Virus record (IMG/VR): IMGVR_UViG_3300037245_003526
Coordinates: 88,297 to 152,296 of that record
Length of the DNA: 64,000 bases
From: a virus
Reading direction: 5' to 3' (one strand)
The notes under the pieces are model-generated. The model was not told where the DNA came from. It searched no databases and was given only the letters and a program-made list of their open reading frames with translations. Shown piece after piece: positions 3,842 through 62,403 of the stretch (positions are counted from its first letter, which is position 1; each line of letters starts with the position of its first letter). The translations under genes were made by a program, and so were the position numbers.

Positions 3842-3895
3842 TTTTTCTCCTTTATATATGGGTCATCATTATATATATAATGATGACCCATAATT

Positions 3896-5203: not shown

Positions 5204-5211
5204 GATTTCTC

Positions 5212-7419: not shown

Positions 7420-7421
7420 AA

Positions 7422-7952: not shown

Positions 7953-7967
7953 TTTTTATTCTCCTTT

Positions 7968-8204: not shown

Positions 8205-8205
8205 T

Positions 8206-10363: not shown

Positions 10364-10375
10364 TTTTATAATCTC

Positions 10376-11154: not shown

Positions 11155-11212
11155 TTAAATCTCCTTTTTATTATATATTTGTTATGTTTAAATGAAAAAA
11201 TGACTTGTTGTT

Positions 11213-31994: not shown

Positions 31995-32150
31995 AAAAAG
32001 AAAGAGGCTAAAGGGTCTTGATATCAAAACTTTAGATCTAAGAGCCATGGAAATTAGTATGGAAAAGTTTTTAGGTATTAGAAGACCTATAAAACAAAAA
32101 AGAATTTTTCGTAAAGAGAGTGCTTATATCTCAAGATAGAAAGGATAACT

Positions 32151-35024: not shown

Positions 35025-35033
35025 GGAGATATA

Positions 35034-36909: not shown

Positions 36910-36915
36910 AAAAAT

Positions 36916-37629
36916 ATGATAACAAGACCAAAAACTATTATTTGTGATATTGATGGAGTTATATTCAAACATAAAGGGGATATTACTAAATTATATAATG
37001 ATAAACCAAAAATTTTACCAGGAGTACTAGAGAAGTTAAAAAAATGGGATCTTGAAAATTGTAATATAATACTAATGACAGGTAGAAGAGAAAGTACAAG
37101 AAAAGAAACAGAAAAACAATTAAGTAATTCTGGTATATTTTATGATAAATTAATTATGGGTGTTGGTGGTGGGATTAGAGTTTTAATAAATGATAGAAAA
37201 CCAAATGGTGATTTCACAACAAAGACATACTGTCTTGAAAGAAATAAAGGATTGGGATCCATTGATAAGTCAGTTGATGAGGGAAAAGATAATTTTATTC
37301 CAAAACCTTGGGGAAGTGAAACGATAATTGAAACCAATAAGTCATATACTGTTAAGAAGTTATTTATGCGTACAGGTCATAAATGTAGCTTACAATATCA
37401 TAAGAAAAAACATGAGACAATCTATATTTTAGACGGGATTATGAACTTATGGGTTGGTATAGATGAGAACTCAATAGAGCATAAAATATTAAATATTGGT
37501 GATACATATGTTATTAAACCAGGGATAGTTCATAGAATGGAGTCTCTTGATGACTGTTATTATTTAGAGAGTTCAACATCTGAACTAGATGATGTAGTTA
37601 GATTACAAGATGAGTATGGGAGAACATAG
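36916..37629 (+). CDS. HAD-like phosphatase fused to a cupin domain
   Basis: ICDIDGVI motif I, then PKPWGSE ... HKCSLQYHKKKHETIYILDG (cupin). Confidence 0.45.
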   Translation: MITRPKTIICDIDGVIFKHKGDITKLYNDKPKILPGVLEKLKKWDLENCNIILMTGRRESTRKETEKQLSNSGIFYDKLIMGVGGGIRVLINDRKPNGDFTTKTYCLERNKGLGSIDKSVDEGKDNFIPKPWGSETIIETNKSYTVKKLFMRTGHKCSLQYHKKKHETIYILDGIMNLWVGIDENSIEHKILNIGDTYVIKPGIVHRMESLDDCYYLESSTSELDDVVRLQDEYGRT

Positions 37630-39197: not shown

Positions 39198-39778
39198 TGG
39201 GAAAACAAACGTATATAGAATATGCAGCTAGACATTTAATACCAAAACATTTAGATCATGTATTAGAGTTCGGTGTATTCAAAGGTAAAACTATGAGGAT
39301 TATAAAAACCGAACTTAGTAAAAAGGATAAAAAATATGAAGTGTTTGGATTTGATTCTTTTATTGGATTTGATGAAGATTGGATAACTCCAGATGGAGAT
39401 GTTCTATTAAGTAAGGGTGCTCTTTCTACTGATGGTAAGGTACCAGATATACCTGGTGTTACTTGGTTTACTGGTTGGTTTAAAGATACCATACCTGAGT
39501 ATTTAAAAATAGCGAAACCTATAGCTTTACTACATCTTGATTGTGATTTATATAAACCAGCAAAAGAAATATTTTATAATATAAATAATTTTATTGTTAA
39601 TGGTACAGTAATTGCTGTTGATGATTGGTATTATGAAAGAAATATAGATTATAATGATACAACTCAAAAAGCATTTTATGAATGGATAAATAATTTTAAT
39701 AGAAGGTTTAAGTTTCTTAATTATCCTGGAGTAAAAGATCCAAGGTATGGACAAGTGGTAGTGGAGGTATTGATATGA
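39197..39778 (+). CDS. TylF/MycF-family O-methyltransferase
   Basis: LLHLDCDLYKPAKE ... VIAVDDW. Confidence 0.45.
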   Translation: MGKQTYIEYAARHLIPKHLDHVLEFGVFKGKTMRIIKTELSKKDKKYEVFGFDSFIGFDEDWITPDGDVLLSKGALSTDGKVPDIPGVTWFTGWFKDTIPEYLKIAKPIALLHLDCDLYKPAKEIFYNINNFIVNGTVIAVDDWYYERNIDYNDTTQKAFYEWINNFNRRFKFLNYPGVKDPRYGQVVVEVLI

Positions 39779-40323
39779 AGTTAATAGATGTTTATAAGGA
39801 AGCTTTAGCGACTATTACTAGTTATTGTGAAACACACAAAAATATATCTTTTTTGGATATTGGTGCTGATGAACCACAACCATTTATTTTGGAGTGCGTT
39901 AGTAGTTACGATATTGATTATAAAGTTATGGAATATGATAATAACATAAATGGAACTTATGTAATGAACGGAGACATATGTTATTGTTCACATATACCTG
40001 ACGAGAGTTATGATATAGTTTATTCACATAATGTGTTTGAGCATATAACTACACCGTGGTTGGCTGCAGAACAGTGTGTTAGGATAAATAAGATAGGGGG
40101 ACTAAACATACATATAGCACCTTTTGCATATGATTACCATAAATGTCCAGGTGATTATTTTAGATATACCCCGTCTGGTTTTAAATCAATGTTTGAGTTT
40201 TCCTGTAATATGAATGAGTTAATGTCAGGGTTTAATACTGGTAAAGTTGCTTGTAACGCCAATCAGAAAGTAGGTCGTTGGTTAGTTATGTATATTGGAA
40301 TGAAGAGGGACGTATCAAAATGA
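39775..40323 (+). CDS. SAM-dependent methyltransferase
   Basis: VYSHNVFEHITTPW ... INKIGG. Confidence 0.4.
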   Translation: MKLIDVYKEALATITSYCETHKNISFLDIGADEPQPFILECVSSYDIDYKVMEYDNNINGTYVMNGDICYCSHIPDESYDIVYSHNVFEHITTPWLAAEQCVRINKIGGLNIHIAPFAYDYHKCPGDYFRYTPSGFKSMFEFSCNMNELMSGFNTGKVACNANQKVGRWLVMYIGMKRDVSK

Positions 40324-41300
40324 AATCAAAACTATATTTGGGACCAATGAGTAAGAACATTGTAGATGCAGCGATAGAACTTAGTAATGAATCTGATATG
40401 TGTGTTGGTTTTTGCGCATCTAGACGCCAAATAGAATTTAATGGCGGGTATGTAAATGGTTGGATCACAAAATCTTTTACAAACTACGTTAGAGGTAAAG
40501 CTAACAACAGTATACTTGTTAGAGATCATGGTGGTCCAGGGCAAGGACAAGAGAATGATGATGGTATAGAATCATTTAAATATGATGCTTTATATTTTGA
40601 TATTATTCATATTGACCCATGGAAAAAATTTAAATCTATTGAAGAAGAAGTAGTTAAGACATCTGAGTATATAGATCTTTGTAATTCTATAAATCCTTAC
40701 TGTAAGTTTGAAGTAGGCACAGAGCAATCTATATGTGAATTATCTTCAGAAGAATTGTTTAGTTTTTTAAATGGATTGAAACGTAGGTTAGGACAAACTT
40801 TATTTAATAAAATAATATATGTGGTTATTCAATCAGGAACATCATTAGAAGAAGATACTAACACTGGTAAATATGATTCTGTTAAATTGAAAAGAATGAT
40901 TGATGTATGTAAAGGTTTTTCAGTACTTTCAAAAGAACACAACGGAGACTATTTATCATCTGATCTTATTAAAGAAAAGTTTTCTTTAGGTTTAGATTCA
41001 ATAAACATAGCACCAGAGTTTGGTGTTATAGAAACTCTATGTGTATTAGATAGAATAGATAATGAAGATTTACTTATAAAGTTACACTCTATGTGTATAG
41101 AATCGGGTAAATGGAAAAAATGGGTAAATGATGATTTTGATCCTAACAAAAATAAAAGAAGATTGATAAAAATATGTGGTCACTATATATTCTCAGAACC
41201 ACGATTTAAATCTTTAATTAAGAACAAAATATTTGATGGGATAGATGACGAAATTAAATCTAAAGTAAAAACTCGTATAAAAAATATATTAGGAGATTAA
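40320..41300 (+). CDS. hypothetical protein (weak GatZ/KbaZ-like sugar-bisphosphate aldolase subunit similarity)
   Basis: LGPMSKNIVDAAIE ... GGYVNGW ... VRDHGGPG. Start at 40320 (ATGA overlap). Confidence 0.25.
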   Translation: MKSKLYLGPMSKNIVDAAIELSNESDMCVGFCASRRQIEFNGGYVNGWITKSFTNYVRGKANNSILVRDHGGPGQGQENDDGIESFKYDALYFDIIHIDPWKKFKSIEEEVVKTSEYIDLCNSINPYCKFEVGTEQSICELSSEELFSFLNGLKRRLGQTLFNKIIYVVIQSGTSLEEDTNTGKYDSVKLKRMIDVCKGFSVLSKEHNGDYLSSDLIKEKFSLGLDSINIAPEFGVIETLCVLDRIDNEDLLIKLHSMCIESGKWKKWVNDDFDPNKNKRRLIKICGHYIFSEPRFKSLIKNKIFDGIDDEIKSKVKTRIKNILGD

Positions 41301-41304
41301 TTTT

Positions 41305-41910
41305 ATGGGTAATAAAAGGTATAAACCTACTAGATATTATATGTATAATCGAATAGAAAATTTTTTTAAAAAATACCAACATAAACCTGGTAAATGTTTA
41401 TTAGTTGGGGATTCTTTACGAGGTGTTGGAAATGGTAAAATAGAAATAAAGAACACAGCTATAATAGATATGCTTCCAAAGGGTTGTGATATTACAGCAC
41501 CATCATATCCAGACGTAGATATGATGTATATGCCGTATGATAAAAATACTTTTGATTATATAATATCAGATCAAGTTTTAGAACATGTTAGAAAACCATG
41601 GTTAGCTGCAGCAGAAATAGAACGTGTATTAAAACCTGATGGATGGGCAATTATTACCACATGTTTAATGAACTATATTCATGGAGTACCAGAAGATTAT
41701 TTTAGATTTACTCCAGATGGTTTAAAAGTATTATTTGAAAACCTTTCTTATATAGAACAAGTAGAAGGTTTTGGTAATCTAAACTTTATAACAAAAGCAT
41801 TAACTGGTAAATTCAAAGTACCCGTTAAACCAGGAACTCCTTTAGAAAAAGAAGTTATGATTAACGATAATAAAAACTTATATTTAACATGGATCATAGG
41901 AAGAAAATAA
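41305..41910 (+). CDS. SAM-dependent methyltransferase
   Basis: ISDQVLEHVRKPW ... LKPDG. Confidence 0.4.
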   Translation: MGNKRYKPTRYYMYNRIENFFKKYQHKPGKCLLVGDSLRGVGNGKIEIKNTAIIDMLPKGCDITAPSYPDVDMMYMPYDKNTFDYIISDQVLEHVRKPWLAAAEIERVLKPDGWAIITTCLMNYIHGVPEDYFRFTPDGLKVLFENLSYIEQVEGFGNLNFITKALTGKFKVPVKPGTPLEKEVMINDNKNLYLTWIIGRK

Positions 41911-41920
41911 AGGAGAATTA

Positions 41921-42505
41921 ATGGACTACATCGAAACCAACATTGAAAATACTAAGAAGTTAATGAAAAATATTAACGAAAAAAGATATAGACAGCTTAA
42001 AAAAAATAGATATATTCCTATAATTGAATTAATGGAAAAATATGTTGATAAATCAGGTCCTTTGCTTGATATAGGAATTAGAGAAGGTGCATTTCTTAAA
42101 GTATTAAGAGATGAAGGATTTACTGATTTATATGGTGTTGATATATACGAAGAAGGAGTTCAACAAGCTATTAAAAATGGATTTGATTGTCAAGTTTCAG
42201 ATGCTATGGATCTACAAATTAGAATGAAATTTAATATAGTTACTATATCTCATGTAATAGAACATTGTCCAGATATAAATAAAGTAGTAGATAATATATA
42301 CGATCTATTAAATCCAAAAGGTGTTTTATATGTGGAAGTACCTAAACAGAAGAAACAAAAAATACCTACAAAAGATGGTCACTACTTTTGCTTTTCGACT
42401 CTAAAAGAACTCCATTCATTTTTTCCGGAGGATAAATGGGAATTGTTAGAATTGACAAAAAATAAAGAAAGTGGACGTCTTAAAATATTAGTAAGGAAAA
42501 TATAA
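41921..42505 (+). CDS. SAM-dependent methyltransferase
   Basis: LDIGIREGAF ... VDIY ... ISHVIEHCPD. Confidence 0.4.
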   Translation: MDYIETNIENTKKLMKNINEKRYRQLKKNRYIPIIELMEKYVDKSGPLLDIGIREGAFLKVLRDEGFTDLYGVDIYEEGVQQAIKNGFDCQVSDAMDLQIRMKFNIVTISHVIEHCPDINKVVDNIYDLLNPKGVLYVEVPKQKKQKIPTKDGHYFCFSTLKELHSFFPEDKWELLELTKNKESGRLKILVRKI

Positions 42506-43185
42506 TGAATAATGGTATTGTATATATAGTATTTAAAAAACATAAGGGTGTAGATCATATAAAAGAAGTTATACAATCTGCAAGAGCAGTTAAAAATATT
42601 CATAAAAAACTTAATATAACATTATTTACAGATTCTAAAAATATTAATGAAAATTGTTTTGATAATATAAAAATTATTCCAATTAATAATACCAGAGAAA
42701 AACAAAATTACTTATATGATTCTCCATATGATTATACATTATATTTAGATAGTGATACTAAAGTAGTAAATCCTATTGAAGATATTTTTAAAATTTTAGA
42801 TAGATTTGATATAGCTGCTTGTTTTGATCATGCTAGAAAAGATCCTAAAAAATCTAAAGTTTGGGAAGACTATGCAAAAATACCAAGCTCATTTTCCGAA
42901 TTTGCTGGAGGTGTTATTTTATTTAAAAAATCTCCTGTAGTTGAAAGCTTCTTTAAAGTATGGAGAGTTAACTATGGACTATGGAAAAAAGCATCTGGTA
43001 AATTAAATGATCAACCATCATTTAGAGTTTCATTATGGCAATGTTCAGATTTGAAAGTTTATACTCTTCCCCCTGAATACAATTTAAGGACACAAGAAAA
43101 AAGAGATAAATTTATTATTAATCCTGTAATTCTTCATTGGCATAAAATGTATATGAATGTTAAAGGAACCCCACAAAAATTTTAG
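42505..43185 (+). CDS. hypothetical protein (possible GT-A glycosyltransferase)
   Basis: YLDSDTKVV DxD motif. Confidence 0.3.
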   Translation: MNNGIVYIVFKKHKGVDHIKEVIQSARAVKNIHKKLNITLFTDSKNINENCFDNIKIIPINNTREKQNYLYDSPYDYTLYLDSDTKVVNPIEDIFKILDRFDIAACFDHARKDPKKSKVWEDYAKIPSSFSEFAGGVILFKKSPVVESFFKVWRVNYGLWKKASGKLNDQPSFRVSLWQCSDLKVYTLPPEYNLRTQEKRDKFIINPVILHWHKMYMNVKGTPQKF

Positions 43186-43194
43186 GGAGAATAA

Positions 43195-43854
43195 ATGATT
43201 ATAGATGTGTTAGTTAATAGTTGTGCTAGAGTTGATCTTCTTGAAAAATCAATATCTACATTTAGGAAACATATTAAGACTGATGAACATGAGTTTAGAT
43301 GGGTCATAGTCGAAGATAAAGTTAATGATCCTAAACGTCAAAAAATTGGTGAAAGATGGATATTTGGTAATGGAAATTTATTTGATAAAATTACTTTTTT
43401 GGGAAAAAAAGCAGGACCAGGTTATTGGTGGGCAGAAATAATTAAACATTGTGAATCAGATTTTCATATTCATTTAGAAGATGATTGTAAATTTATCAAT
43501 GATATTTATATAGATCCAATAATTGAAATAATGGAGGTTCAAAGTAATATTGTTGAAATTATATTTAGAAGAGATACAGCAAAAAAGAATAATAATAAAT
43601 TAAAAATATTTGATCTTAAATTAACTGAAATGGATTTATTATCAGTTGCTTCAGGTATTTTTAATACAAAAAATGTAATAAAAATTATTGATAAAATAGG
43701 TTGGAAAAAACAATTACATGAAGCAAAAAACTTAACTCATACATCTAAAAAAATGGGATTAAGAAAATTCATATTAGATCATAATAAAGTACATTATATT
43801 CATGTAGGACAAAAGAAATGTTATAGAAAAGGAAAATGGATTGAAACTAAATAA
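43195..43854 (+). CDS. glycosyltransferase family 2-like
   Basis: MIIDVLVNSCARVDLLEKSI N-terminus and an HLEDD motif. Confidence 0.35.
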   Translation: MIIDVLVNSCARVDLLEKSISTFRKHIKTDEHEFRWVIVEDKVNDPKRQKIGERWIFGNGNLFDKITFLGKKAGPGYWWAEIIKHCESDFHIHLEDDCKFINDIYIDPIIEIMEVQSNIVEIIFRRDTAKKNNNKLKIFDLKLTEMDLLSVASGIFNTKNVIKIIDKIGWKKQLHEAKNLTHTSKKMGLRKFILDHNKVHYIHVGQKKCYRKGKWIETK

Positions 43855-44125
43855 TTGTGAAATTTGTAAAAGATCATTTCCTTCTTTAGATACACATCAT
43901 ATACATAGTCTTAGTTTAGATGGTGTAAATAAAGAATGGAATAAATGTTATATTTGTCCATCGTGTCATAGGTTAGTTCACATAGGTGAAATAATACTTG
44001 AAGGAAGATTTAGAACAACTAAAGGTAATACATTAATTTTTAGAAATAAAGAAGAAGAATCAATAACACAATTTGAGGATCCTCGTGTGTGGTTAATTGG
44101 TAAGGAGAAAAAAGATGAAAAGTAA
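43841..44125 (+). CDS. HNH endonuclease
   Basis: CEIC ... THHIHS ... CPSCHRLVH. Apparent TTG start that overlaps the upstream gene. Confidence 0.5.
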   Translation: MKLNNCEICKRSFPSLDTHHIHSLSLDGVNKEWNKCYICPSCHRLVHIGEIILEGRFRTTKGNTLIFRNKEEESITQFEDPRVWLIGKEKKDEK

Positions 44126-45326
44126 AAATATCATAATATTTGGTGGAGATGGTTTTTGTGGATGGCCAACAGCTCTTTATTTATCAAAAGCAGGTTATAA
44201 TATTACTATTGTAGATAACTTATCTAGACGAAAAATAGATGTTGAATTAGAATGTCAATCTCTTACTCCCATTGCTTCTATTACAAATCGTAGAGCTATG
44301 TGGCAATCAAGGTCAGGTAATGTTATTCATTATGCTAATATAGATGTCCATGATAATTTTCATAGACTTCTTACTATGATTAATGAAATTAAACCTTTAG
44401 CGGTCATTCATTTTGCTGAACAGAGGGCAGCACCCTATTCAATGAAGAGTCCTTGGCATAAGAGATATACGGTTAATAATAATTTAAATGCTACTAATAA
44501 TATATTGGATGCGATTGTTGAATCAGGTTTAGATATTCATGTTGTTCATTTAGGAACAGCTGGTTATTATGGTTATTCTTCAGTAGGAATGAAAATTCCT
44601 GAAGGGTATCTTAAAGTCAAAGTTGATGTTGATGGAGAAGAAAAAGATCTTGAAATAATGTATCCTCCAAATCCAGGATCTATATATCATTTAACTAAAT
44701 GTCAAGATGCTTTGTTTTTTCATTATTATAATAAGAATGATGCTTTAAGAATAACTGATTTACATCAAGGTATTGTTTATGGATGTCAAACTGATGAAAC
44801 AATAATACATGAAGATTTAATTAATCGTTTTGACTATGATGGTGATTATGGAACTGTATTAAATAGGTTTGCTATACAAGCTGCTATAGGTCATCCATTA
44901 ACTATATATGGTACAGGTGGACAAACAAGAGCATTTATTCATATTTCAGATACAGTTAAATGTATTAAATTAGCTATTGAAAATCCTCCAGCAGAAGGTG
45001 ATCGTGTTAGAGTTTTAAATCAAGCTGCTGAATGTTTAAATGTACATGATTTAGCAGACACAATAAAAAGACTTACTGGAGCAGAAATTAGATATTATAA
45101 AAATCCTAGAAATGAAGATCCTAAAAATGAGTTAAAATTTGCTAATGAAGGTTTTAAAAGTTTAGGATGGGAACCTAAATTATTAGAATATGCATTAATA
45201 GAAGATGTTATGAAAATTGCTCATAAATGGAAAGATAGAGTTGATATTGATAAAGTAATACCTACTTCATTATGGGATAAAAATAAAGAGGTTGATAAAA
45301 TAGGAGCATTTATACCAGAAAAATAG
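44115..45326 (+). CDS. UDP-sulfoquinovose synthase (SQD1)-like SDR
   Basis: IIIFGGDGFCGWPTALYLSKAGYNITIVDNLSRR closely parallels the SQD1/Agl3 N-terminus (GGDGYCGW). Start at 44115 behind RBS AAGGAG. Confidence 0.5.
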   Translation: MKSKNIIIFGGDGFCGWPTALYLSKAGYNITIVDNLSRRKIDVELECQSLTPIASITNRRAMWQSRSGNVIHYANIDVHDNFHRLLTMINEIKPLAVIHFAEQRAAPYSMKSPWHKRYTVNNNLNATNNILDAIVESGLDIHVVHLGTAGYYGYSSVGMKIPEGYLKVKVDVDGEEKDLEIMYPPNPGSIYHLTKCQDALFFHYYNKNDALRITDLHQGIVYGCQTDETIIHEDLINRFDYDGDYGTVLNRFAIQAAIGHPLTIYGTGGQTRAFIHISDTVKCIKLAIENPPAEGDRVRVLNQAAECLNVHDLADTIKRLTGAEIRYYKNPRNEDPKNELKFANEGFKSLGWEPKLLEYALIEDVMKIAHKWKDRVDIDKVIPTSLWDKNKEVDKIGAFIPEK

Positions 45327-45337
45327 GAGACTAAAAA

Positions 45338-46318
45338 ATGGCGAATTGGTTAATAACAGGTGGGTGTGGTTTTATAGGATTGAATTTAGTTAAGGAGTTA
45401 GCAGATGAAGGAGGACATGAAATAAGAGTAGTTGATAATATGTCATTCGGTAAAGCTGATGACCTTAAATATGTTTGTGAATATAAACATACACATCCAA
45501 ATAATTTTAAAGAACCTGTAGTAGAATTAGTAGAAGTTGATATTAAAGATAAATTTTATATGAATCAAGTAATGGAAGATATTGATTATGTAGTTCATTT
45601 AGCAGCTATAAGCGGAGTTAGACTTTCAGTTGATGATCCCACAACCAGCTTTACAACAAATGTTGATGGTACTTTTAATTTACTTGAAGCAGCTAGAAAA
45701 AATAATATTAAAAAGTTTATATTTGCTTCAAGTGGCGCTGGAGTTGGAGATCATAAACCACCAATTCATGAAGATTTACCAGCAAGACCAGTATCTCCAT
45801 ATGGGGCAACTAAATTAGCTGGTGAAGGTTTATGTACTTCTTATTATCATTCATTCGGACTTGAAACTACTTCATTAAGATTTAGTAATGTTTATGGTCC
45901 TTTTTCTCATCGTAAAGAAAGTCTTGTAGCAAAATTAGTAAAACGAGTATTAGATAATAAAACTTTTAATATATATGGTGATGGTAATCAAACAAGAGAT
46001 TTTGTATATGTAGATGATTTAGTTAATGCAATAAAACTTTGTGTTTCTACAGAAGATATTGGAGGAGAAATATATCAATTATGTACAGGTAATGAATCTT
46101 CAATAAATTTCATTATTGGTGAAATAATACATATACTTAAAAAGAGAGCGTTTGATGATTTTAAACTTGAAATAGTAGAAGAAAAAATTGGAGATTTAAA
46201 AACAAATTGGGCAGATAATACAAAAATATATAATCACTTAGGATGGTCTCCGCAAGTTAAATTAGATGAAGGTCTTGAAAATACTATAGGTTGGTTAATC
46301 GAAAATTATAAAAAGTAG
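45338..46318 (+). CDS. NAD-dependent nucleotide-sugar epimerase/dehydratase
   Basis: WLITGGCGFIGLNLV Rossmann motif and YGATK catalytic motif. Confidence 0.55.
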   Translation: MANWLITGGCGFIGLNLVKELADEGGHEIRVVDNMSFGKADDLKYVCEYKHTHPNNFKEPVVELVEVDIKDKFYMNQVMEDIDYVVHLAAISGVRLSVDDPTTSFTTNVDGTFNLLEAARKNNIKKFIFASSGAGVGDHKPPIHEDLPARPVSPYGATKLAGEGLCTSYYHSFGLETTSLRFSNVYGPFSHRKESLVAKLVKRVLDNKTFNIYGDGNQTRDFVYVDDLVNAIKLCVSTEDIGGEIYQLCTGNESSINFIIGEIIHILKKRAFDDFKLEIVEEKIGDLKTNWADNTKIYNHLGWSPQVKLDEGLENTIGWLIENYKK

Positions 46319-46320
46319 AC

Positions 46321-46368
46321 AAAAAAAAACGGGGTAGTATTGCATTTGCTTCTACCCCCCCGTTTTTT
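46321..46368. terminator. bidirectional intrinsic terminator
   Basis: A9-CGGGGTAG ... CTACCCCCCG-T6 hairpin, flanked by an A-run and a T-run, between convergent genes. Confidence 0.6.
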
Positions 46369-46386
46369 GATATCATAAGATACACC

Positions 46387-47232
46387 CTATAAAAGTGTAG
46401 ATATGAAACAAGTTGCATCCTTTGCAGAATCAATAAGTTCTGCACCAGCGTCACTAATATCTAATGGTTCAGATCTAGCTCCAACAAGAGGTTCTATTTC
46501 AGGATTAACTACTGGCTCGTCCACAGGTTCATCATCCACAGGTTCATCATCCATAGGTTCATCATCCACAGGTTCATCATCCACAGGTTCATCATCCATA
46601 GGTTCATCATCCACAGGTTCATCATGTGTCCAACCGGCCATTGCATGATCATAAATAGCAGCACGATCAAGGGAACCTACAACACGATCATATACTCGGA
46701 TTTCATCAACCCTTCCCTGAATACCATCCCAATCAAATGTTACACCTACATCAATAGCACCCTCAAAATAAAATACGGGAGCTTCTACATTATTGATGTA
46801 GAATCTGAAACCAACCGAATCATCATCATCAATTTGGGTTTTAGTCACTATTATATGATAATACCCGTACTGAGGAATAATAACATTCAGATTTGCACCA
46901 CCAAGTGACATAACAAATATTGAATATGAAATTGTATACTCTGCTAATTCTGAAAGATCGGGTACTGTTATTTCTGCCCCAAATTGTGGATCCAACATAC
47001 AACTATAATTTCTTGAACCATCTGGAGTTACTATTTCCCTATCCCATGTAAAGTTGTATCCAAGATCCACTTCATCAACACTCGGGTCAATCCAATAAGG
47101 GAAATCCCGTTCCGGATTTTCTATTTGCGGTTCCATTGGTTGATAAGCAACAAGTCCATCATTAATATCTGCACTTACAATCCCTACCATCAAAAACACA
47201 ATCATTATAGTAATGTTAAAAATCTTTTTCAT
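46387..47232 (-). CDS. secreted LamG/concanavalin-like lectin-domain protein with a C-terminal acidic (DEPV/MDDEP)n repeat
   Basis: Signal peptide MKKIFNITIMIVFLMVGIVSA. GRVDEIRVYDRVVGSLD (LamG_3-like). Repeats DEPVDDEPMDDEPVDDEP. Higher GC than its neighbours. Confidence 0.45.
   Translation of the reverse strand: MKKIFNITIMIVFLMVGIVSADINDGLVAYQPMEPQIENPERDFPYWIDPSVDEVDLGYNFTWDREIVTPDGSRNYSCMLDPQFGAEITVPDLSELAEYTISYSIFVMSLGGANLNVIIPQYGYYHIIVTKTQIDDDDSVGFRFYINNVEAPVFYFEGAIDVGVTFDWDGIQGRVDEIRVYDRVVGSLDRAAIYDHAMAGWTHDEPVDDEPMDDEPVDDEPVDDEPMDDEPVDDEPVDEPVVNPEIEPLVGARSEPLDISDAGAELIDSAKDATCFISTLL
46516..46625. repeat. about seven tandem 15-bp repeats (CAGGTTCATCATCCA/T) encoding the acidic repeat
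   Basis: Read directly from the sequence. Confidence 0.7.
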
Positions 47233-50701: not shown

Positions 50702-51253
50702 ATGGAGAAAATTCTTATCCTTTATAGTGGTGGTGCTGATTCCAGACTTATGTTAGAGCTAGCACATAAGATTGGATTATCAATCAATTGCCTTCTTATC
50801 AATTATGATCAGTTACATTCAGAAGAATTATCAATAGCAAAAAAACAACTAGAAGAATTAGAGATACCATACCAAACAGTCGATTTAAAAAATCTAAATA
50901 TTAATAGCGGTCTTACCGGAGATGGTATTAAAGATGATTCAGGTGATGTCCATGAAATGTATGTACCAGGAAGAAATACAGTATTTTTAAGTATAGCTCT
51001 TAGTATAGCTGAAAGTAAAGATATTAAAACAATATGGTTAGGATGTGATTGGTCAGATCGTTTAAATCTTTTTCCTGATTGTTATCAGGAATATATAGTA
51101 CAAATAAATGAGTTATTTAAAATTGCAGGTCCAAAATCAATAAAGGTTGAAGCTCCATTAATGGGATTAAGTAAAAAAAATATATTTGGATTACTTAAAT
51201 CATTTGGAGTAGATGAAGGAGATATTTTTTCTGGTTATGGGGATTTATCATGA
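50702..51253 (+). CDS. queC: QueC-like 7-cyano-7-deazaguanine synthase (PP-loop ATPase), C-terminally short
   Basis: ILYSGGADSRL PP-loop, YDQLH, VPGRNTVFLSIALSIAE, and DCYQEY. It lacks the C-terminal Cys4 zinc site of canonical QueC. Confidence 0.5.
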   Translation: MEKILILYSGGADSRLMLELAHKIGLSINCLLINYDQLHSEELSIAKKQLEELEIPYQTVDLKNLNINSGLTGDGIKDDSGDVHEMYVPGRNTVFLSIALSIAESKDIKTIWLGCDWSDRLNLFPDCYQEYIVQINELFKIAGPKSIKVEAPLMGLSKKNIFGLLKSFGVDEGDIFSGYGDLS

Positions 51254-51612
51254 AAAAAGAAAAGTTAAAAGAGGGAATTAAATATGACTTTGGAAAAAGT
51301 CGATATGATCTGATAGACCCATATGCATTAGAACAAGTTATACAAATATACACATTTGGTTGTAATAAATATGAAGATCATAATTGGCGAAAAGGAATGA
51401 AATGGAGTAGAGTATTCGGTGCACTAATGAGACATTGTTGGGCATTCTGGAGAGGAGAAGAAATAGATCCAGAAAGTAAATTACCTCATATGGCACATGC
51501 TGCATGGAATTGTCTTACCTTAATTAATTATTCAAAGTATAGAACAAAATTTGATGACAGATGGATAGAAACAGAAGAGAAAATAATCGAAAACGTAAGG
51601 AGAGGAAAATGA
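51250..51612 (+). CDS. phage NTP pyrophosphohydrolase-like protein (dATP/dGTP diphosphohydrolase N-domain family, from memory)
   Basis: GKSRYDLIDPYAL ... KYEDHNWRKGMKWSRVFGALMRHCWAFWRGEEID ... HMAHAAWNCLTL. This matches the pattern GKxRYDLxPxxAL ... KYGDxNWxKG ... SRxxDSALRH ... DHLAAAAWN that I recall for that family. Confidence 0.4.
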   Translation: MKKEKLKEGIKYDFGKSRYDLIDPYALEQVIQIYTFGCNKYEDHNWRKGMKWSRVFGALMRHCWAFWRGEEIDPESKLPHMAHAAWNCLTLINYSKYRTKFDDRWIETEEKIIENVRRGK

Positions 51613-52019
51613 TTAAAGTATACTTGGCAGGTTATGCAGGAGAAAAGGAATATAGAGAATATGTTTCTAAAAGATATGGAAGACATTTAGATATATTTGA
51701 TCCAATGAAAGAAGTTGACTCTAAAATTTTAGAAAAATATAGTGGAGGAACTTTATCAGAAAAAGATGTTGCTCTTATTGTAGAAGGAGATAAAGCAGCA
51801 ATTGAATCATGTGATATAGTTATTGTATATATAAGGAGAGCTTCTTTTGGAACAGCAATGGAAACGCTTCATGCATTCAAAAATAAAATTCCTGTTTATT
51901 TAATTGATTCAGATAATAAATGGAGAGAAGATGTTTGGGTACGATACCATACAACTAAGACATTCGATGATATAGATTCATGCTTCAGTTATATTTTAGA
52001 AAGCATAAAAGGATTGTAG
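51609..52019 (+). CDS. nucleoside 2-deoxyribosyltransferase-like / dNMP N-hydrolase-like protein
   Basis: MIKVYLAGYAG N-terminus and FGTAMETLHAFKNKIPVYLI (G-T-x-x-E catalytic motif). Start at 51609 (ATGA overlap, RBS AAGGAGAGG). Confidence 0.4.
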   Translation: MIKVYLAGYAGEKEYREYVSKRYGRHLDIFDPMKEVDSKILEKYSGGTLSEKDVALIVEGDKAAIESCDIVIVYIRRASFGTAMETLHAFKNKIPVYLIDSDNKWREDVWVRYHTTKTFDDIDSCFSYILESIKGL

Positions 52020-55652: not shown

Positions 55653-56185
55653 ATTGTTTAAAATGTGGTGTTGAAACTACAAATACTAAATTTTGTGGAA
55701 GAGCATGTTCTGCTTCATATAACACAAAAGGTAGAAAACATTCTATTGAAACCAAAAGAAAAATAAGTAATACATTAGGTGGAGTAGGTAAAGCAGAAGA
55801 AGAACATTTTTGTAAATTATGTGGACATAATATTTCAAGTGTTAGAAAAACTAAATTATGTGATACATGTAAAATTGGTGAATTTTTATGTGATGTATGT
55901 GGAAAAATTTGTAAAACAGAATTAGGATTAAAAAGTCATAAAGAACAAGGTTGTATTAACAGAAAAATAGGTATAGATTCACAAGGTTATGAATATTTTA
56001 CTGATAATGAAAATAAATTTAAATATGTTCATAGATCTAAAATTGAAGAATTGTTAGGAAGAAAACTAAAAACTAATGAAGTTGTTCATCATAAAGATGA
56101 AATTAAAAAAAATAATGATATAGAAAATCTAGAACTAATGACTATATCTAAACATTCAAAACTTCATGCTGATATGCGCCGATAG
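55649..56185 (+). CDS. HNH endonuclease with N-terminal zinc ribbon and a C2H2-like finger
   Basis: CLKCG ... CGRAC, CDVCGKICKTELGLKSHKEQ, and C-terminal VHHKDEIKKNNDIENLELMTISKHSKLH. Its 3' end overlaps tRNA-Trp. Confidence 0.5.
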   Translation: MNCLKCGVETTNTKFCGRACSASYNTKGRKHSIETKRKISNTLGGVGKAEEEHFCKLCGHNISSVRKTKLCDTCKIGEFLCDVCGKICKTELGLKSHKEQGCINRKIGIDSQGYEYFTDNENKFKYVHRSKIEELLGRKLKTNEVVHHKDEIKKNNDIENLELMTISKHSKLHADMRR

Positions 56186-56251
56186 CTCAAGCGGGTAGAG
56201 TACTGGTCTCCAAAACCAGTGGTGGGGATTCGAGGTCCTCTCGGCGTGCCA
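56176..56251 (+). tRNA. tRNA-Trp (anticodon CCA)
   Basis: Manual cloverleaf. Acceptor GCGCCGA / TCGGCGT, anticodon arm CTGGT-CTCCAAA-ACCAG, T-loop TTCGAGG, 3' GCCA. Confidence 0.55.
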
Positions 56252-56273
56252 TAAAAACGAAAGGAAAATAAGA

Positions 56274-56558
56274 GTGGATGATATAAAAAGATATAAATCA
56301 CAAAACGAAATAAATATACCTATAGTTAGAAACTACAAAGATTTATATATTCTACTTCAAAGACCAATGAATTTTGAAGATGGTTCTGAAGCATATATTC
56401 ATTCTGAAGGAATTATAAGAGAAGATTGGCCGAATGCTCATTTATGTTTTTTAAAATATACAGCAGATAATAAAATAAGGGATTGGCTTTGGTTATTGAG
56501 TCCAGACGAAAAAAAAGGTATGTGTATTTTTGACTTTAAACCAGAGTATACAGTTTAA
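56274..56558 (+). CDS. hypothetical protein. Paralog A of a tandem duplicated pair.
   Basis: MDDIKRYKSQNEI ... C.FDFKPEY. Confidence 0.4.
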   Translation: MDDIKRYKSQNEINIPIVRNYKDLYILLQRPMNFEDGSEAYIHSEGIIREDWPNAHLCFLKYTADNKIRDWLWLLSPDEKKGMCIFDFKPEYTV

Positions 56559-56575
56559 ACGAAAGGTAGTTCTTA

Positions 56576-56860
56576 ATGAATGAATTAAAAAGATATAAAT
56601 CAGCAGAAGAATTGAATAACCCATATTTTGTTAAAGATCATAAGGACTTGAATAAATTAGATAAAAAGTTTGATTTAAAAGAGGGTGATGAAGCAGTTTG
56701 GATTATTGATAGAACTGGCTGTCCAGAATGGTGGAATGGCGAACGTAATTATTATAGAAATATTAATGATTCTAAAAATCCACAATATATATGGTGCCCA
56801 ATTAAGGGTGAAGATGGTGGTTTATGTTTTATTGACTTTGAACCAGAATACTCAATTTAA
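56576..56860 (+). CDS. hypothetical protein (paralog B)
   Basis: MNELKRYKSAEEL ... CFIDFEPEY. Same length as paralog A (94 aa). Confidence 0.4.
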   Translation: MNELKRYKSAEELNNPYFVKDHKDLNKLDKKFDLKEGDEAVWIIDRTGCPEWWNGERNYYRNINDSKNPQYIWCPIKGEDGGLCFIDFEPEYSI

Positions 56861-56877
56861 ACGAAAGGAAATTAACA

Positions 56878-57261
56878 TTGAAGATAGCATTTGATTTTCA
56901 CGGAGTATTACAAACGTATCCAGAAATTTTAAAACCTATTTTAATATCATTAAATAAAGAACATAATTTAATAATATTATCTGGACCACCATGGAAAGAA
57001 ATTTTTGTAGAACTTACTGACGCAGGTTATACTTTAGGTACCCACTATGATGAAATAATTTCTGTAGTTGATTGGATTAAAGAACAAGGTATTCCAATGC
57101 ACCAAAATGAAAATGAATCATGGTATTGTGATGATGAAAGTTGGTGGTCAAGTAAAGCTAAAATTTGTAAACAAAATCATATAAGTGTTTTAGTAGATGA
57201 TAAGATACAATATAAAGAACATATTGAAAATAATTTTCCATTATTTTTTCATGTGAAATAA
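56878..57261 (+). CDS. small HAD-like hydrolase (5'(3')-deoxyribonucleotidase-like). TTG start.
   Basis: IAFDFHGVL (motif I) and VLVDD (motif IV). Confidence 0.35.
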   Translation: MKIAFDFHGVLQTYPEILKPILISLNKEHNLIILSGPPWKEIFVELTDAGYTLGTHYDEIISVVDWIKEQGIPMHQNENESWYCDDESWWSSKAKICKQNHISVLVDDKIQYKEHIENNFPLFFHVK

Positions 57262-57262
57262 A

Positions 57263-57338
57263 CCTCCCATAGCTCAACAGGTAGAGCATTCGCCTTATAA
57301 GCGAAAGACGATAGGTTCGATTCCTACTGGGAGGACCA
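57263..57338 (+). tRNA. tRNA-Ile (anticodon UAU, reads AUA)
   Basis: Manual fold. Acceptor CCTCCCA / TGGGAGG, D-stem GCTC/GAGC, anticodon arm TTCGC-CTTATAA-GCGAA, T-loop TTCGATT, ACCA. Confidence 0.5.
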
Positions 57339-57343
57339 TATAT

Positions 57344-57418
57344 TCCTTAGTGGTGAAATTGGCATCACGTATGGCTGTTAACCATAAATTACAGGTTCGA
57401 CCCCTGTCTGAGGAGCCA
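57344..57418 (+). tRNA. tRNA-Asn (GUU)
   Basis: Manual fold. Acceptor TCCTTAG / CTGAGGA, D-stem GTGA/TCAC, anticodon arm TATGG-CTGTTAA-CCATA, T-arm ACAGG-TTCGACC-CCTGT, GCCA. Confidence 0.5.
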
Positions 57419-57424
57419 AATTAT

Positions 57425-57498
57425 TCTCAGGATGTATACGGAGCATTATTAATTGACGCGCGCTTTAGTAGGAAGTTCGACCCTTCCCCTGAGAGCCA
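57425..57498 (+). tRNA. tRNA-like element or pseudo-tRNA (no canonical anticodon arm)
   Basis: Acceptor TCTCAGG / CCTGAGA plus GCCA, and a good T-arm GGAAG-TTCGACC-CTTCC. The central 39 nt, including GACGCGCGC, does not fold into a D-arm and anticodon arm. Confidence 0.3.
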
Positions 57499-57504
57499 TT
57501 TAAT

Positions 57505-57580
57505 GGGTGAGTAGCTAAACTGGCTTAGCGTCGAGCTGTTAACTCGAAGTATGAGAGTTCAAGTCTCTCCTTGCCCTCCA
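57505..57580 (+). tRNA. tRNA-Asn (GUU), second copy
   Basis: Manual fold. Acceptor GGGTGAG / CTTGCCC (2 G-U pairs), D-stem GCTA/TAGC, anticodon arm TCGAG-CTGTTAA-CTCGA, T-arm GAGAG-TTCAAGT-CTCTC, TCCA. Confidence 0.45.
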
Positions 57581-57601
57581 TTAAAAACGAAAGGATACTT
57601 T

Positions 57602-57826
57602 ATGATAAGTCCATGTAAAAAATGTATTAATCATTCAAGAATATTTCCAGTATGTTTTGATAAATGCAAATCAATAGAACAATTTCAACATTCATTATTT
57701 CATACTTCTATTATTGAAGAAGCAGAAGATTATGAATATATAACTCAAGATTGTCTATGGAAATATGAAGGTATATATAGACTAGCTAATACGAAAACAC
57801 CTCAAATAGAAGCTCAACTATATTAA
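57602..57826 (+). CDS. Cys-rich zinc-ribbon family member (short)
   Basis: MISPCKKCINHSRIFPVCFDKCKS. Start behind AAACGAAAGGA. The track's longer ORF overlaps the tRNA. Confidence 0.4.
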   Translation: MISPCKKCINHSRIFPVCFDKCKSIEQFQHSLFHTSIIEEAEDYEYITQDCLWKYEGIYRLANTKTPQIEAQLY

Positions 57827-57829
57827 TAA

Positions 57830-57904
57830 TGGGGGATCGTCTAATGGTCAGGACCCAAGATTTTGAATCTTGTAATCGGAGTTCGAATCTCTGTCCCTCA
57901 GCCA
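57830..57904 (+). tRNA. tRNA-Gln (UUG)
   Basis: Manual fold. Acceptor TGGGGGA / TCCCTCA, D-stem GTCT/GGAC, anticodon arm CAAGA-TTTTGAA-TCTTG, T-arm CGGAG-TTCGAAT-CTCTG, GCCA. Confidence 0.5.
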
Positions 57905-57908
57905 AATA

Positions 57909-58172
57909 ATGCCGAGTAGTATATTGATTATTACAACCGAACTTAAAGGGAGAATGAGGTTTAATTCCTCACTCGGCAACCACTTAAAAATTATGAAAGA
58001 AAATCTATATTGGTTAAACACGACTTGGGGTTGTGGTGGAATACTAACAAATGATAAGAATATAATTACAAATTCATGTCCATTATATGGTTGGATGAAA
58101 GGAAATAAAATAAGTTATATTCTAAAGTATCTTGATAAAAAAAGAGTATTAAGAAAATGTAAAAAAATATAG
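57909..58172 (+). CDS. hypothetical protein
   Basis: 87 aa. A 7-bp inverted repeat (GCCGAGT / ACTCGGC) spans its 5' end. Confidence 0.3.
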   Translation: MPSSILIITTELKGRMRFNSSLGNHLKIMKENLYWLNTTWGCGGILTNDKNIITNSCPLYGWMKGNKISYILKYLDKKRVLRKCKKI

Positions 58173-58187
58173 AAAGGAAGGTATATT

Positions 58188-58748
58188 ATGAACAAGGTGA
58201 TTGTTTTAAATAGCGATTACAGTTTTCTAAATTTAGTACATTGGAAAACAGCAATGCGCCTGGTTTGTAAGAATAAAGTTGAGGTTTTAAAAGAGACTAC
58301 TAGGATTTTAACTGACGAATTAAAAACTTGGAAAATTGCTATACCATTAGTAATAAGACTTGTTAAAATAGTTCGTACTATTTATAAGACTAGAGTACCT
58401 TTTAGTAAAAAGAATGTATTTGTTCGTGACAATTTTACATGTCAATATTGTGGAGAAGAGTTTAATAGTAAAACTAAAAAGAGAGTTTTGAATGCCTCTG
58501 GACATCATGAAAGCATACTATTAAATATAGATCATTTAAATCCTACCTCAAAAGGTGGGAAATCAACATTTGAAAATTGTGTTGCTTCATGTAAAACTTG
58601 TAATAATAAGAAAGGTGATAGGAGTCTAAGAGAACTAAATATGGTTTTAGCAAGGAGTCCATTTCAACCAACTATTATGGAGTTCATGATTCTTAAAATG
58701 AAATCTTTAGGAATAGATGAGATTCTTAAAGACTTAGGAGTATATTAG
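58188..58748 (+). CDS. HNH endonuclease
   Basis: CQYCGEEF ... HHESILLNIDHLNPTSKGG ... NCVASCKTCNNKKGD. Confidence 0.55.
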   Translation: MNKVIVLNSDYSFLNLVHWKTAMRLVCKNKVEVLKETTRILTDELKTWKIAIPLVIRLVKIVRTIYKTRVPFSKKNVFVRDNFTCQYCGEEFNSKTKKRVLNASGHHESILLNIDHLNPTSKGGKSTFENCVASCKTCNNKKGDRSLRELNMVLARSPFQPTIMEFMILKMKSLGIDEILKDLGVY

Positions 58749-58755
58749 ATTAATG

Positions 58756-58842
58756 GCGGGTACCGTCCACGGGGACAAGCGGCCTTGAAAGCCGTTGGCG
58801 TGTGTAAAAGCATGGGCGTTCGACTCGTCTACTCGCCGCCAT
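58756..58842 (+). tRNA. tRNA-Ser (UGA), class II with long variable arm
   Basis: GC-rich island. Acceptor GGCGGGT / ACTCGCC plus GCCA, 3-bp D-stem, anticodon arm GCGGC-CTTGAAA-GCCGT, ~18-nt variable arm, T-arm GGGCG-TTCGACT-CGTCT. Confidence 0.5.
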
Positions 58843-59156: not shown

Positions 59157-59354
59157 ATGGAACGATTCAGAAATAAACAGACTGAATGTAAATATTCAGA
59201 TATAAATAATAAAGGTTTTTGTAATTATAACAACTGGCACAATGGTCTGTGCTTTTGTACTAAAAAAGAATGGGAAGGAAAAAAGTTAAAAGCATATTTA
59301 TGTTGTCCATATCTTTTTTTAAATGATACAGAAGAATACGGAAAGGAAAGGTGA
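59157..59354 (+). CDS. small Cys-rich hypothetical protein
   Basis: 65 aa. CKYS ... FCNYNNWHNGLCFC ... CCPY. Confidence 0.35.
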   Translation: MERFRNKQTECKYSDINNKGFCNYNNWHNGLCFCTKKEWEGKKLKAYLCCPYLFLNDTEEYGKER

Positions 59355-60475
59355 GAAAAGTGAAGACTGATAAATTAGCATCATTAATCCCAATCCACGA
59401 ACTAGAACAATCCGCACAACAACAAGTCTATAATAATCTAGCGTTTGACTTTTTATTAAAGTTAGCTATCATGCCAGATTGTCATACAGGATATTTATTA
59501 CCAATAGGTGGAGTTGCATTATTAGATAATGTTGTATCTCCTGAATACGTTGGATATGATGAAGGTTGTGGTATGTGTTGTATAGTAACAGATATACCTT
59601 ACTATGATATACTTAAAAATGATAAAAAGAATCAAAGATTATTTGATAAAATATATAAACATATTCCTGTTGGATTTAATATGAGAGAAAATTCTCTTCA
59701 TTGTTTTGATGAATTCAAATCAGCATCTGGTGATAAAGCTTTAAATAAAAAAGTAAATGAAAAATTATGGAAACAGCTAGGTACACTGGGAGGGGGTAAT
59801 CATTTTATTGAATTGGGTAAAGATAAAAATGATATGTTTTGTATCACTATACATTCTGGTTCACGTAATCCTGGTCATTCTGTTGCTGGTTTTTATATGA
59901 AGAAAACAAAACTCATTGATAAAGATTTACCTAAAGGATTCTTCCATCTACATTCAGAATGGGGTCAGATGTTTATACAAGACTTAGAATTTATGCTTGA
60001 ATATGCTCTTGCTAATAGAACAGAGATGATGAAAAATATTTTAGATATAGTTGGTTTATCTCATAACTTTTTATTTAAGATGATTAATGAAAATCATAAT
60101 CATGCTATTGTTCAGAATAATAATACAGTACTTCATAGAAAAGGTGCTACTCCATCATTAAAAAATCAACTTGGAGTTATACCTGGTAATATGAGAGATG
60201 GTGTTTATGTTGTTAAAGGTCTTGGTAATAAAAAATATCTTAATTCATCTTCTCATGGAGCTGGAAGAAAGGGTTCTAGAAGATGGGCAAAAGAGTCTAT
60301 TACAATGGAAAGATTTGAACAGTCAATGGATGGAATAATAGCTAAAGTTGATAAGTCTACATTAGATGAAGCACCTGATGCTTATAAAAATGTTGACAAG
60401 GTAATTCAAGCACAGGCAGGAATTGTAGTAGATGTTATTAATCATATCCAACCTATTATAAATGTGAAAGGATAA
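59351..60475 (+). CDS. rtcB: RtcB-family RNA ligase (3'-phosphate/5'-OH)
   Basis: MPDCHTGY ... PIGGVA, GGGNHFIELG, HSGSRNPGH and SSHGAGR. These are the canonical RtcB metal-binding and GMP-His motifs. Confidence 0.65.
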   Translation: MRKVKTDKLASLIPIHELEQSAQQQVYNNLAFDFLLKLAIMPDCHTGYLLPIGGVALLDNVVSPEYVGYDEGCGMCCIVTDIPYYDILKNDKKNQRLFDKIYKHIPVGFNMRENSLHCFDEFKSASGDKALNKKVNEKLWKQLGTLGGGNHFIELGKDKNDMFCITIHSGSRNPGHSVAGFYMKKTKLIDKDLPKGFFHLHSEWGQMFIQDLEFMLEYALANRTEMMKNILDIVGLSHNFLFKMINENHNHAIVQNNNTVLHRKGATPSLKNQLGVIPGNMRDGVYVVKGLGNKKYLNSSSHGAGRKGSRRWAKESITMERFEQSMDGIIAKVDKSTLDEAPDAYKNVDKVIQAQAGIVVDVINHIQPIINVKG

Positions 60476-61657: not shown

Positions 61658-61978
61658 ATGATTGTAGAAAAAGTAAAACAATTTTTTTCAAGTGAGAATA
61701 AGGAAATATTTAAATTTATAAAAAAAGAAAAGTACCCTTGTAAAGAATGTCTTGTAGTACAAGTATGTTCAGAACTTTGTGATAAAGTTGAAATTGATGA
61801 ATATAAAATTTTTAATAAAATGATTACTAATAGTTGTTGTCCTGATTGTGGTGGAACAAAACTTTATGAAGGTTCAAGTGGAGGATGTTGTCAAAATATT
61901 TTTTGTACAAATTGTAACCATGGATTTAATGTAACAGCTCCTTTTGAAAAAATTGAAAGAATAGGAAAAATGAGATAG
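61658..61978 (+). CDS. Cys-rich double zinc-ribbon protein (family member)
   Basis: PCKECLVVQVCSELCDKV ... CPDCGG ... CTNCNH. Confidence 0.5.
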   Translation: MIVEKVKQFFSSENKEIFKFIKKEKYPCKECLVVQVCSELCDKVEIDEYKIFNKMITNSCCPDCGGTKLYEGSSGGCCQNIFCTNCNHGFNVTAPFEKIERIGKMR

Positions 61979-62028
61979 TATAGTATTACTATATATATTA
62001 ATTAAATGAATATCTTGAAAATTTTAAT

Positions 62029-62403
62029 GGGCGTGAAATGGCTTCGACAGGGATGATGAAGAGAATATTGCGATTGGTAATGATCAATACCTTAAAAGAT
62101 CAACTAAACATAAATGCAGACAATTTAGCATTTGCAGCTGCTGACGATTATGCCACAGCTGCACTTGCTGCCTAAAGAGGCGGCACGTCAAACCTTTGAT
62201 GCTATCTAAAAGGATCTTGGCGTCGACTAGATAGATAGGTTAACTTTAGTTTGTGAATACTAAGGTAAAACCGAAATCCGAATTCACAAACTTCTGAGGG
62301 TTTATGTCCTTTTATAAACTCAGAAGTATTTAAAAGGACTATAATCGTAGATATATGATTGGATGGTTTCTGGACCTCGGTTCGACTCCGAGCACGTCCA
62401 CCA
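62029..62403 (+). ncRNA. ssrA: tmRNA (ssrA). Tag peptide (A)DNLAFAAADDYATAALAA.
   Basis: 5' GGGCGTGAAATGGCTTCGACAGGG (tmRNA hallmark TTCGAC-GGG). Tag ORF GCA GAC AAT ... CTT GCT GCC TAA at 62116-62175, ending ALAA-stop. 3' tRNA-like end GGACCTCGG-TTCGACT-CCGAG plus CACGTCC-A-CCA pairing with the 5' GGGCGTG. Confidence 0.7.

Follow-up and report, generated by a model that had tools for sequence, protein, structure and literature searches.

Does a 375-nucleotide (nt) element of an uncultivated virus genome encode a complete transfer-messenger RNA (tmRNA), and could such an RNA rescue stalled ribosomes on behalf of a phage? The question is raised by positions 62029–62403 (+) of a stretch of 64,000 nt from the IMG/VR virus record IMGVR_UViG_3300037245_003526 (positions 88,297 to 152,296 of that record), where a first-pass annotation had proposed a phage-encoded tmRNA. 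The whole of this 64-kb stretch is hereafter called the window, and all coordinates refer to it unless stated otherwise. The element belongs to the tmRNA family, and each sequence and structure feature that we examined was found in it.

Identity and fold of the tmRNA gene

Both programs suggested in the first-pass annotation as checks recognized the proposed gene with exactly its boundaries. ARAGORN reported a tmRNA with the tag ADNLAFAAADDYATAALAA followed by a stop codon, and the Rfam model of one-piece tmRNA (RF00023) matched the same 375 nt at 132.6 bits (E = 1.2e-51; gathering score, 47 bits), covering model positions 1–374 of 374 without truncation. The minimum free energy (MFE) was −116.3 kcal/mol, compared with −85.1 ± 5.6 kcal/mol for shuffled sequences (z = −5.55), with none of the 100 shuffles as stable. 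The single-strand MFE fold closes the acceptor stem between the 5' and 3' ends; this closure and the covariance match are the two points on which the original proposal had been said to stand or fall. The description of the element as GC-rich holds relative to its flanks (~30% GC) and the whole window (~28%) but not in absolute terms (40.5%). Nothing in the gene points to decay.

Two other calls at the same place were rejected. The permuted tmRNA model (RF04321, tmRNA_permuted; 54.2 bits, cutoff 47; 62000–62175 +) matched the 5' half of the gene, which is a model-overlap artefact: the gene order is standard, with the 5' acceptor strand first and the 3' strand last, and a permuted (two-piece) tmRNA is thus ruled out. 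A 45-amino-acid ORF (open reading frame) starting with ATG (62038–62175 +; MASTGMMKRILRLVMINTLKDQLNINADNLAFAAADDYATAALAA) is the tag frame, open upstream, rather than a protein gene; gene callers could wrongly annotate a small protein there. The tmRNA otherwise sits in a 522-nt gap without ORFs; apart from this open-upstream frame, it is overlapped by just two ORFs of 30 amino acids or more, both short and antisense.

The anatomy of the molecule was checked stem by stem, by direct base-pair counting (Table 1). The acceptor strands proposed in the first-pass annotation pair at all seven positions, including G3·U70, the alanine identity pair, and the T-arm with its TTCGACT loop, the discriminator A and the CCA likewise lie where they had been placed, within 62376–62403, so that the 3' end reads ACCA at 62400–62403. 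The sole departure from the family consensus is at acceptor position 4, which is C (C4:G69) where the Rfam consensus has G4. Both UGGCUUCGAC and helix 2 align to the RF00023 model at high posterior probability; in studied tmRNAs, the region of the D-loop analogue is a contact of SmpB. There is no anticodon arm, and the long helix 2 stands in its place, with CAGGG paired with UUCUG (62368–62372) in H2a and GCGAUU paired 6/6 with AAUCGU (62343–62348) in H2d. All 11 stems of the four pseudoknots (PK1–PK4), three of which (PK2–PK4) lie downstream of the tag, are fully complementary, and there is no mismatch in any stem of H2a, H2d, PK1–PK4 or helix 5 (H5).

The internal frame ends in ATAALAA-TAA, as had been noticed in the first reading of the sequence; ARAGORN and direct translation agree on it, with the coding part at 62116–62172. 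The C-terminal ALAA is the motif that ClpXP recognizes on ssrA-tagged proteins. The first-pass annotation had set the first alanine of the tag in brackets. The tag is present, but this alanine is itself encoded, by the resume codon GCA, whereas the alanine on a charged tmRNA is an extra residue ahead of the resume-codon residue; the appended peptide would therefore be A-ADNLAF...ALAA. Upstream of the resume codon, U(−5) and A(−4) occupy the same offsets as U85 and A86 of Escherichia coli, which set the tmRNA reading frame, A86 being nearly invariant and essential for frame choice (PMC2481249). With 19 codons, compared with ~10 in E. coli, the tag is about twice the common length. It resembles two tag-like halves, ADNLAFAA and ADDYATAALAA, with five of the first eight residues identical between them; this suggests an internal duplication, although the similarity may be due to chance in such Ala-rich, low-complexity sequence. 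The AFAA...ALAA layout is similar in the tags of two other phage loci retrieved below (L008 and L020).

Table 1 Positions of the tmRNA, its parts and the nearby RNA-related genes in the window
Feature	Position	Strand	Evidence or detail
Complete one-piece tmRNA (ssrA) gene, 375 nt	62029..62403	+	ARAGORN, RF00023, MFE z
Acceptor stem, 5' strand GGGCGUG	62029..62035	+	7/7 pairs with 62393–62399; G3 = 62031
D-loop analogue AAAUGGCUUCGAC	62036..62048	+	matches Rfam consensus GAucuGGaUUCGAC, high posterior probability
Helix 2, 5' strand	62048..62075	+	H2a 62048–62052, H2d 62070–62075
PK1, upstream of tag	62076..62102	+	GGUA/UACC 4/4; UGAUC/GAUCA 5/5
U(−5) A(−4) before resume codon	62111..62112	+	upstream sequence CAUAAAU, then GCA
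Tag frame	62116..62175	+	resume GCA 62116–62118, 19 codons ADNLAFAAADDYATAALAA, stop UAA 62173–62175
Helix 5	62167..62184	+	GCUGCC/GGCGGC 6/6, stop codon inside loop UAAAGA
PK2	62186..62234	+	stems 6/6, 5/5; knot stem CUAUCUA/UAGAUAG 7/7
PK3	62238..62290	+	stems 4/4, 6/6; knot stem UUUGUGAAU/AUUCACAAA 9/9
PK4	62291..62339	+	stems 8/8, 5/5; knot stem GUCCUUUU/AAAAGGAC 8/8
Helix 2, 3' strand	62343..62372	+	Rfam alignment, pair counting
T-arm CUCGG-UUCGACU-CCGAG, stem 5/5	62376..62392	+	sequence, Rfam alignment
Acceptor 3' strand CACGUCC, discriminator A, genome-encoded CCA	62393..62403	+	U70 = 62397
Six tRNA genes (Trp, Ile-UAU, Asn x2, Gln, Ser) and HNH endonuclease genes	56176..58841	+	ARAGORN, Pfam
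RtcB RNA ligase	59351..60475	+	PF01139 7e-75; phrog_1075 3e-99

Phage setting and relatives of the gene

The tmRNA is flanked on both sides by phage genes, in agreement with the proposal that it is phage-encoded. Upstream are a cluster of tRNA genes, with three HNH endonucleases among and beside them, and, ~1.5 kb from the tmRNA, RtcB; genes for a CARDB protein and an NMNAT+NUDIX enzyme follow just downstream, and a look-up of the NMNAT+NUDIX protein returned no exact match. Five of the six tRNAs are confirmed by Rfam; the tRNA-Ser(UGA) called by ARAGORN (58755–58841 +) scores below the Rfam gathering threshold, and the anticodon of tRNA-Ile(UAU) (57263–57338 +) is also present in many phage tRNA arrays that our searches retrieved. 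RtcB, a LigD-type 3'-phosphoesterase (644–1177 −) and a polynucleotide kinase (PNK)-like N-terminal domain fused to a cysteine-dioxygenase-like domain (36916–37629 +) possibly form an RNA-repair set. Elsewhere, the window encodes a Dda-like helicase (phrog_325, 1.6e-97), a T4-type clamp loader (6.9e-56) and a virion structural protein (7.4e-27), and its genes form long co-directional blocks with little space between them. The best informative protein matches in GenBank, at 28–37% identity, are to jumbo phages, namely, Synechococcus phage S-SKS1 (208 kb), Listeria phage LPJP1 and Bacillus phage BpSp; the remaining proteins show at most 42% identity to GenBank phages with hosts from many phyla. 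These comparisons place the phage in a novel lineage, and its genome is probably large.

Given that tmRNA is universal in bacteria and that the sugar-modifying and nucleotide-metabolism enzymes of the window also occur in cells, the window could in principle come from a cell, as a piece of an AT-rich chromosome or plasmid, the tmRNA being the cell's own ssrA. The gene content makes this extremely unlikely: no cellular housekeeping genes were seen in the window, whereas phage hallmarks (the helicase, the clamp loader, the virion protein and the HNH genes around the tRNAs), the matches to jumbo phages and the tight co-directional packing all speak for a phage. Furthermore, smpB, which is often located near ssrA in cellular genomes, was not detected: tblastn of the window, which is only part of the phage genome, with an E. 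coli SmpB query gave no match, and Pfam matched SmpB neither to the 36 ORFs that lacked any other annotation nor to the neighbouring ones.

A phage can also carry ssrA sequence as a passenger, with no role in infection, for example, a cellular gene captured when a phage integrated at ssrA excised imprecisely, or a remnant of an attachment site. The ssrA gene is a common integration site, and its 3' ends are found on temperate phages, as discussed in PMC9004378. Indeed, the 3' domain of the present tmRNA finds its best short DNA matches in ssrA ends of Listeria prophages (E 0.04; 77.6% over 56 nt), with a common T-arm/acceptor type, and the GC content of the gene differs from the ~28–30% of the phage. 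Such attP fragments, however, are partial and located beside an integrase, whereas the present gene is full length, with an intact tag frame and no break in any of the stems checked, and scanning of window ORFs with Pfam and PHROG revealed no integrase; an attachment-site remnant was rejected on these grounds. An elevated GC content is what structured RNAs normally show in an AT-rich genome, and it is 49% in those tRNAs of the phage that appear in the Rfam alignments. Moreover, the exact 24-nt T-arm/acceptor sequence is absent from all of 185,579 species genomes, so the gene was not captured recently from any sequenced lineage and has remained intact while diverging. Taken together, an idle passenger is very doubtful. 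The Listeria matches and the motifs UUCGACAGGGAUG and GUUUCUGGAC, which the Bacillus subtilis ssrA also contains, provide a weak lead to a Firmicutes-like host.

Close relatives of the tmRNA were not found: blastn against 50,697 GenBank phage records gave zero matches at E ≤ 1e-5, and the exact 5' 24-mer was absent from IMG/VR and the JGI metagenomes. Degenerate patterns retrieved ~80 loci in all. Patterns for the tRNA-like domain yielded 47 IMG/VR loci, ~30 of them with complete tmRNAs; many of these complete tmRNAs lie inside tRNA arrays of 80–205 kb contigs, and their tags include ...SGLALAA, ...KKLALAA and ...QFAA. A second pattern, combining the same acceptor with a tag start A-[N/D]-[N/D], retrieved 20 metagenome loci, many adjoining phage-style tRNA clusters, and only 10 of the 185,579 species genomes, scattered across unrelated phyla. 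The retrieved loci align to the tmRNA of the window only in the tRNA-like domain, and the four complete ones of cellular origin that have this acceptor resemble it only in the universally conserved parts. The GGGCGUG/CACGUCC acceptor, with its C4:G69 pair, is also that of many tmRNAs on large phage contigs in IMG/VR and on metagenome contigs that bear tRNA clusters (L002–L068). Synteny via RtcB was tried and abandoned: the only related IMG/VR locus (L001, IMGVR_UViG_3300040801_000890; RtcB 58% identical) lacks both tRNA and tmRNA genes. Around its RtcB, L001 contains ~10 HNH-like copies on both strands (2000–12300 of that contig) that are related to 58188–58748 of the window and may reflect an assembly oddity or extreme proliferation of homing endonucleases.

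Compared with known systems, the tmRNA combines the standard architecture with a phage setting. It shares with bacterial one-piece tmRNAs (RF00023; E. coli and B. subtilis) the alanine acceptor with G3·U70, the T-arm, ACCA, helix 2, PK1, the U/A frame nucleotides, the ALAA tag, the stop codon in the H5 loop and PK2–PK4; it differs from these in being encoded by a phage with no smpB detected nearby and in its C4:G69 pair and 19-codon tag. Phage one-piece tmRNAs are likewise complete ssrA genes, often located in or beside a tRNA cluster and with tags commonly ending in LAA; among those in IMG/VR (L013, L017, L020, L026–L030, L034, L035 and L038), several have the GGGCGUG/CACGUCC acceptor. The likeness to these extends no further than the tRNA-like domain; tag and pseudoknots are unrelated. 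Two-piece phage tmRNAs (OM43 phage Melnitz and pelagimyophages; PMC9004378) are likewise virus-encoded ssrA genes of AT-rich phages with T4-like replication genes, but these are permuted and accompanied by a glutamine riboswitch, whereas here the ends pair directly and the Rfam scan detected no riboswitch or other Rfam family near the tmRNA.

The first-pass annotation had called tmRNAs rare in phages and reported mainly from very large ones. They are uncommon, having been found in 402 of 18,146 phage genomes (2.3%; 133 unique; PMC9004378), but they are well documented, with numerous papers on phage isolates describing them, and very large phages are not their only carriers. Three uncultured crAss-like phages of 95–104 kb (NC_055895.1, NC_055899.1 and NC_055901.1) carry a gene annotated as 'transfer-messenger RNA, SsrA', the 3' ends of which give short matches to the tRNA-like domain in the window, and many IMG/VR contigs of 50–205 kb bear a tmRNA. 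In huge phages, both tmRNA and SmpB have been reported (PMC7162821), a difference from this window. Judged by these comparisons, the tmRNA described here is a new, sequence-divergent member of the documented class of phage tmRNAs. The phenomenon has already been catalogued, phage annotation pipelines based on ARAGORN report such genes routinely, and this tmRNA opens no new question by itself.

The nearest sequence is found in a metagenomic contig (L057, LGVF01079025.1), where the first 27 nt match at 26 positions and the 3' strand of helix 2 and the 3' half of the tRNA-like domain are very similar; tRNA genes adjoin this tmRNA as well, following it. In contrast, its tag, ANDNSVPLAVAKAA, and its pseudoknots are unrelated to those in the window, and it has no encoded CCA. 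Immediately upstream and co-directional is a gene for the adaptor SspB (3186–4351 of that contig; PF04386, 40.2 bits, cutoff 27), which has no counterpart in the window. The contig, possibly of phage origin and examined over 5.2 kb, could represent a mobile pair of a tmRNA and a degradation adaptor. Because the tRNA-like domain and helix 2 are near-identical in the two molecules whereas the tags are unrelated, one might envisage a lineage of tmRNAs passed on among large phages, as opposed to repeated capture from hosts. Such a lineage would be marked by the GGGCGUG/CACGUCC acceptor, would keep the tRNA-like domain while the tag/pseudoknot module is swapped, and would in some cases be accompanied by SspB. 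We regard this scenario as a long shot. If it were true, phage tmRNAs would be a virus-controlled tagging system with custom tags (here, of double length) rather than a spare host rescue RNA.

Possible roles of the tmRNA in infection

Because the gene has all the determinants of a rescue tmRNA in undegraded form, ordinary trans-translation is the best explanation of the locus, and the gene quite probably encodes a functional phage one-piece tmRNA that acts as bacterial SsrA does. If the gene is expressed, the transcript would be processed at its ends and charged with alanine by the host alanyl-tRNA synthetase (AlaRS) via G3·U70. The charged tmRNA would then bind SmpB and EF-Tu, both supplied by the host unless the rest of the phage genome encodes SmpB, and enter ribosomes stalled on truncated or stop-less mRNAs. 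Translation would resume at the GCA codon (62116), with U(−5)/A(−4) fixing the frame, the peptide A-ADNLAFAAADDYATAALAA would be appended, and termination would occur at UAA, freeing the ribosome and directing the tagged protein to proteases of the ClpXP type through the ALAA at its C terminus.

The benefit to the phage would be an additional rescue capacity that maintains the pool of free ribosomes and recycles amino acids when infection yields broken mRNAs, whether through degradation of host mRNA, shutoff of host transcription or RNA-cleaving defence systems. Roles in host shutoff or against ribosome-stalling defences, as envisaged in the first-pass annotation, are plausible. Such a benefit fits the tRNA cluster and the RNA-repair genes (RtcB, PNK-like and LigD-type 3'-phosphoesterase) in the same window, and published proposals on the roles of phage tmRNAs agree with it (PMC7162821, PMC9004378). 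A paper on AcrIIIA1 concerns host tmRNA fragments rather than phage genes and was not used for function.

Several observations weigh against a rescue function. With no SmpB detected in the window, function would depend on the fit of the tmRNA with the SmpB and AlaRS of the host, and charging may be affected by the C4:G69 pair that replaces the usual G:C in the acceptor. Since the searches described above returned no close relatives, there is no lineage-level support from covariation, tag conservation or purifying selection. The promoter scan performed no better than on shuffled sequence, and there is no terminator directly after the gene; the promoter and terminator scans, showing no enrichment over shuffled sequence, are uninformative. 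Finally, we know of no experiment that shows what any phage tmRNA does.

The unusual tag invites a different assignment, namely, that the tmRNA works but in a role other than general rescue, such as marking host proteins selectively for degradation and recycling of their amino acids, sensing translational stress in the host to time lysis, or competing with the host tmRNA for SmpB, the unusually long tag of the phage then replacing that of the host. The doubled length and the two tag-like halves would suit such a role, the position of the near-identical tRNA-like domain of L057 directly downstream of SspB hints that some mobile tmRNAs bring along a degradation-targeting machinery, and functions of this kind have been proposed for phage tmRNAs (PMC9004378, PMC7162821). 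However, the sequence has no feature foreign to a standard rescue tmRNA, ALAA is an ordinary degron ending, neither SspB nor SmpB was detected in the window, and the apparent duplication within the tag is perhaps a product of chance. A specialized role of this sort thus appears improbable, and general ribosome rescue is the assignment that we prefer.

The intact determinants, the tRNA and RNA-repair neighbours and the divergence from sequenced cellular ssrA genes together argue for long-term retention under selection in phages. Intact phage-borne copies such as this one add to the case for a translation-maintenance kit in large phages.

Other genes in the window

Directly upstream of the tmRNA, at 61658–61978 (+), lies one of several small Cys-rich, zinc-ribbon-like paralogues; the others are at 6201–6563, 7968–8291 and 8206–8607 (−). 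This family, noticed by eye, shares the motifs C.GC.VLP.C...C and CPDCGG...C..C.H.F and has no Pfam or PHROG match. A 2546-amino-acid ORF (18652–26292 +; locally higher GC, ~35%) has no significant PHROG family and may encode a structural or fibre protein of giant size. An ORF at 46387–47232 (−) has a signal-peptide-like N-terminal hydrophobic segment and a C-terminal acidic repeat (DEPVDDEPMDDEPVDDEPV...), with no family match.

The region ~32000–46400 (+) is a block of sugar- and small-molecule-modifying enzymes that is unusually large for a phage and includes glycosyltransferases, several class-I and TylF-like methyltransferases, a sulfotransferase and an enzyme of the GDP-mannose-dehydratase/epimerase type. 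At 50702–52019 (+), QueC (PF06508, 1.8e-34) is located beside an N-terminal domain of dATP/dGTP diphosphohydrolase (PF18909, 3.7e-33) and a third adjacent gene, a nucleoside 2-deoxyribosyltransferase-like ORF below the Pfam cutoff; this trio suggests modified DNA bases, of the 7-deazaguanine type or similar.

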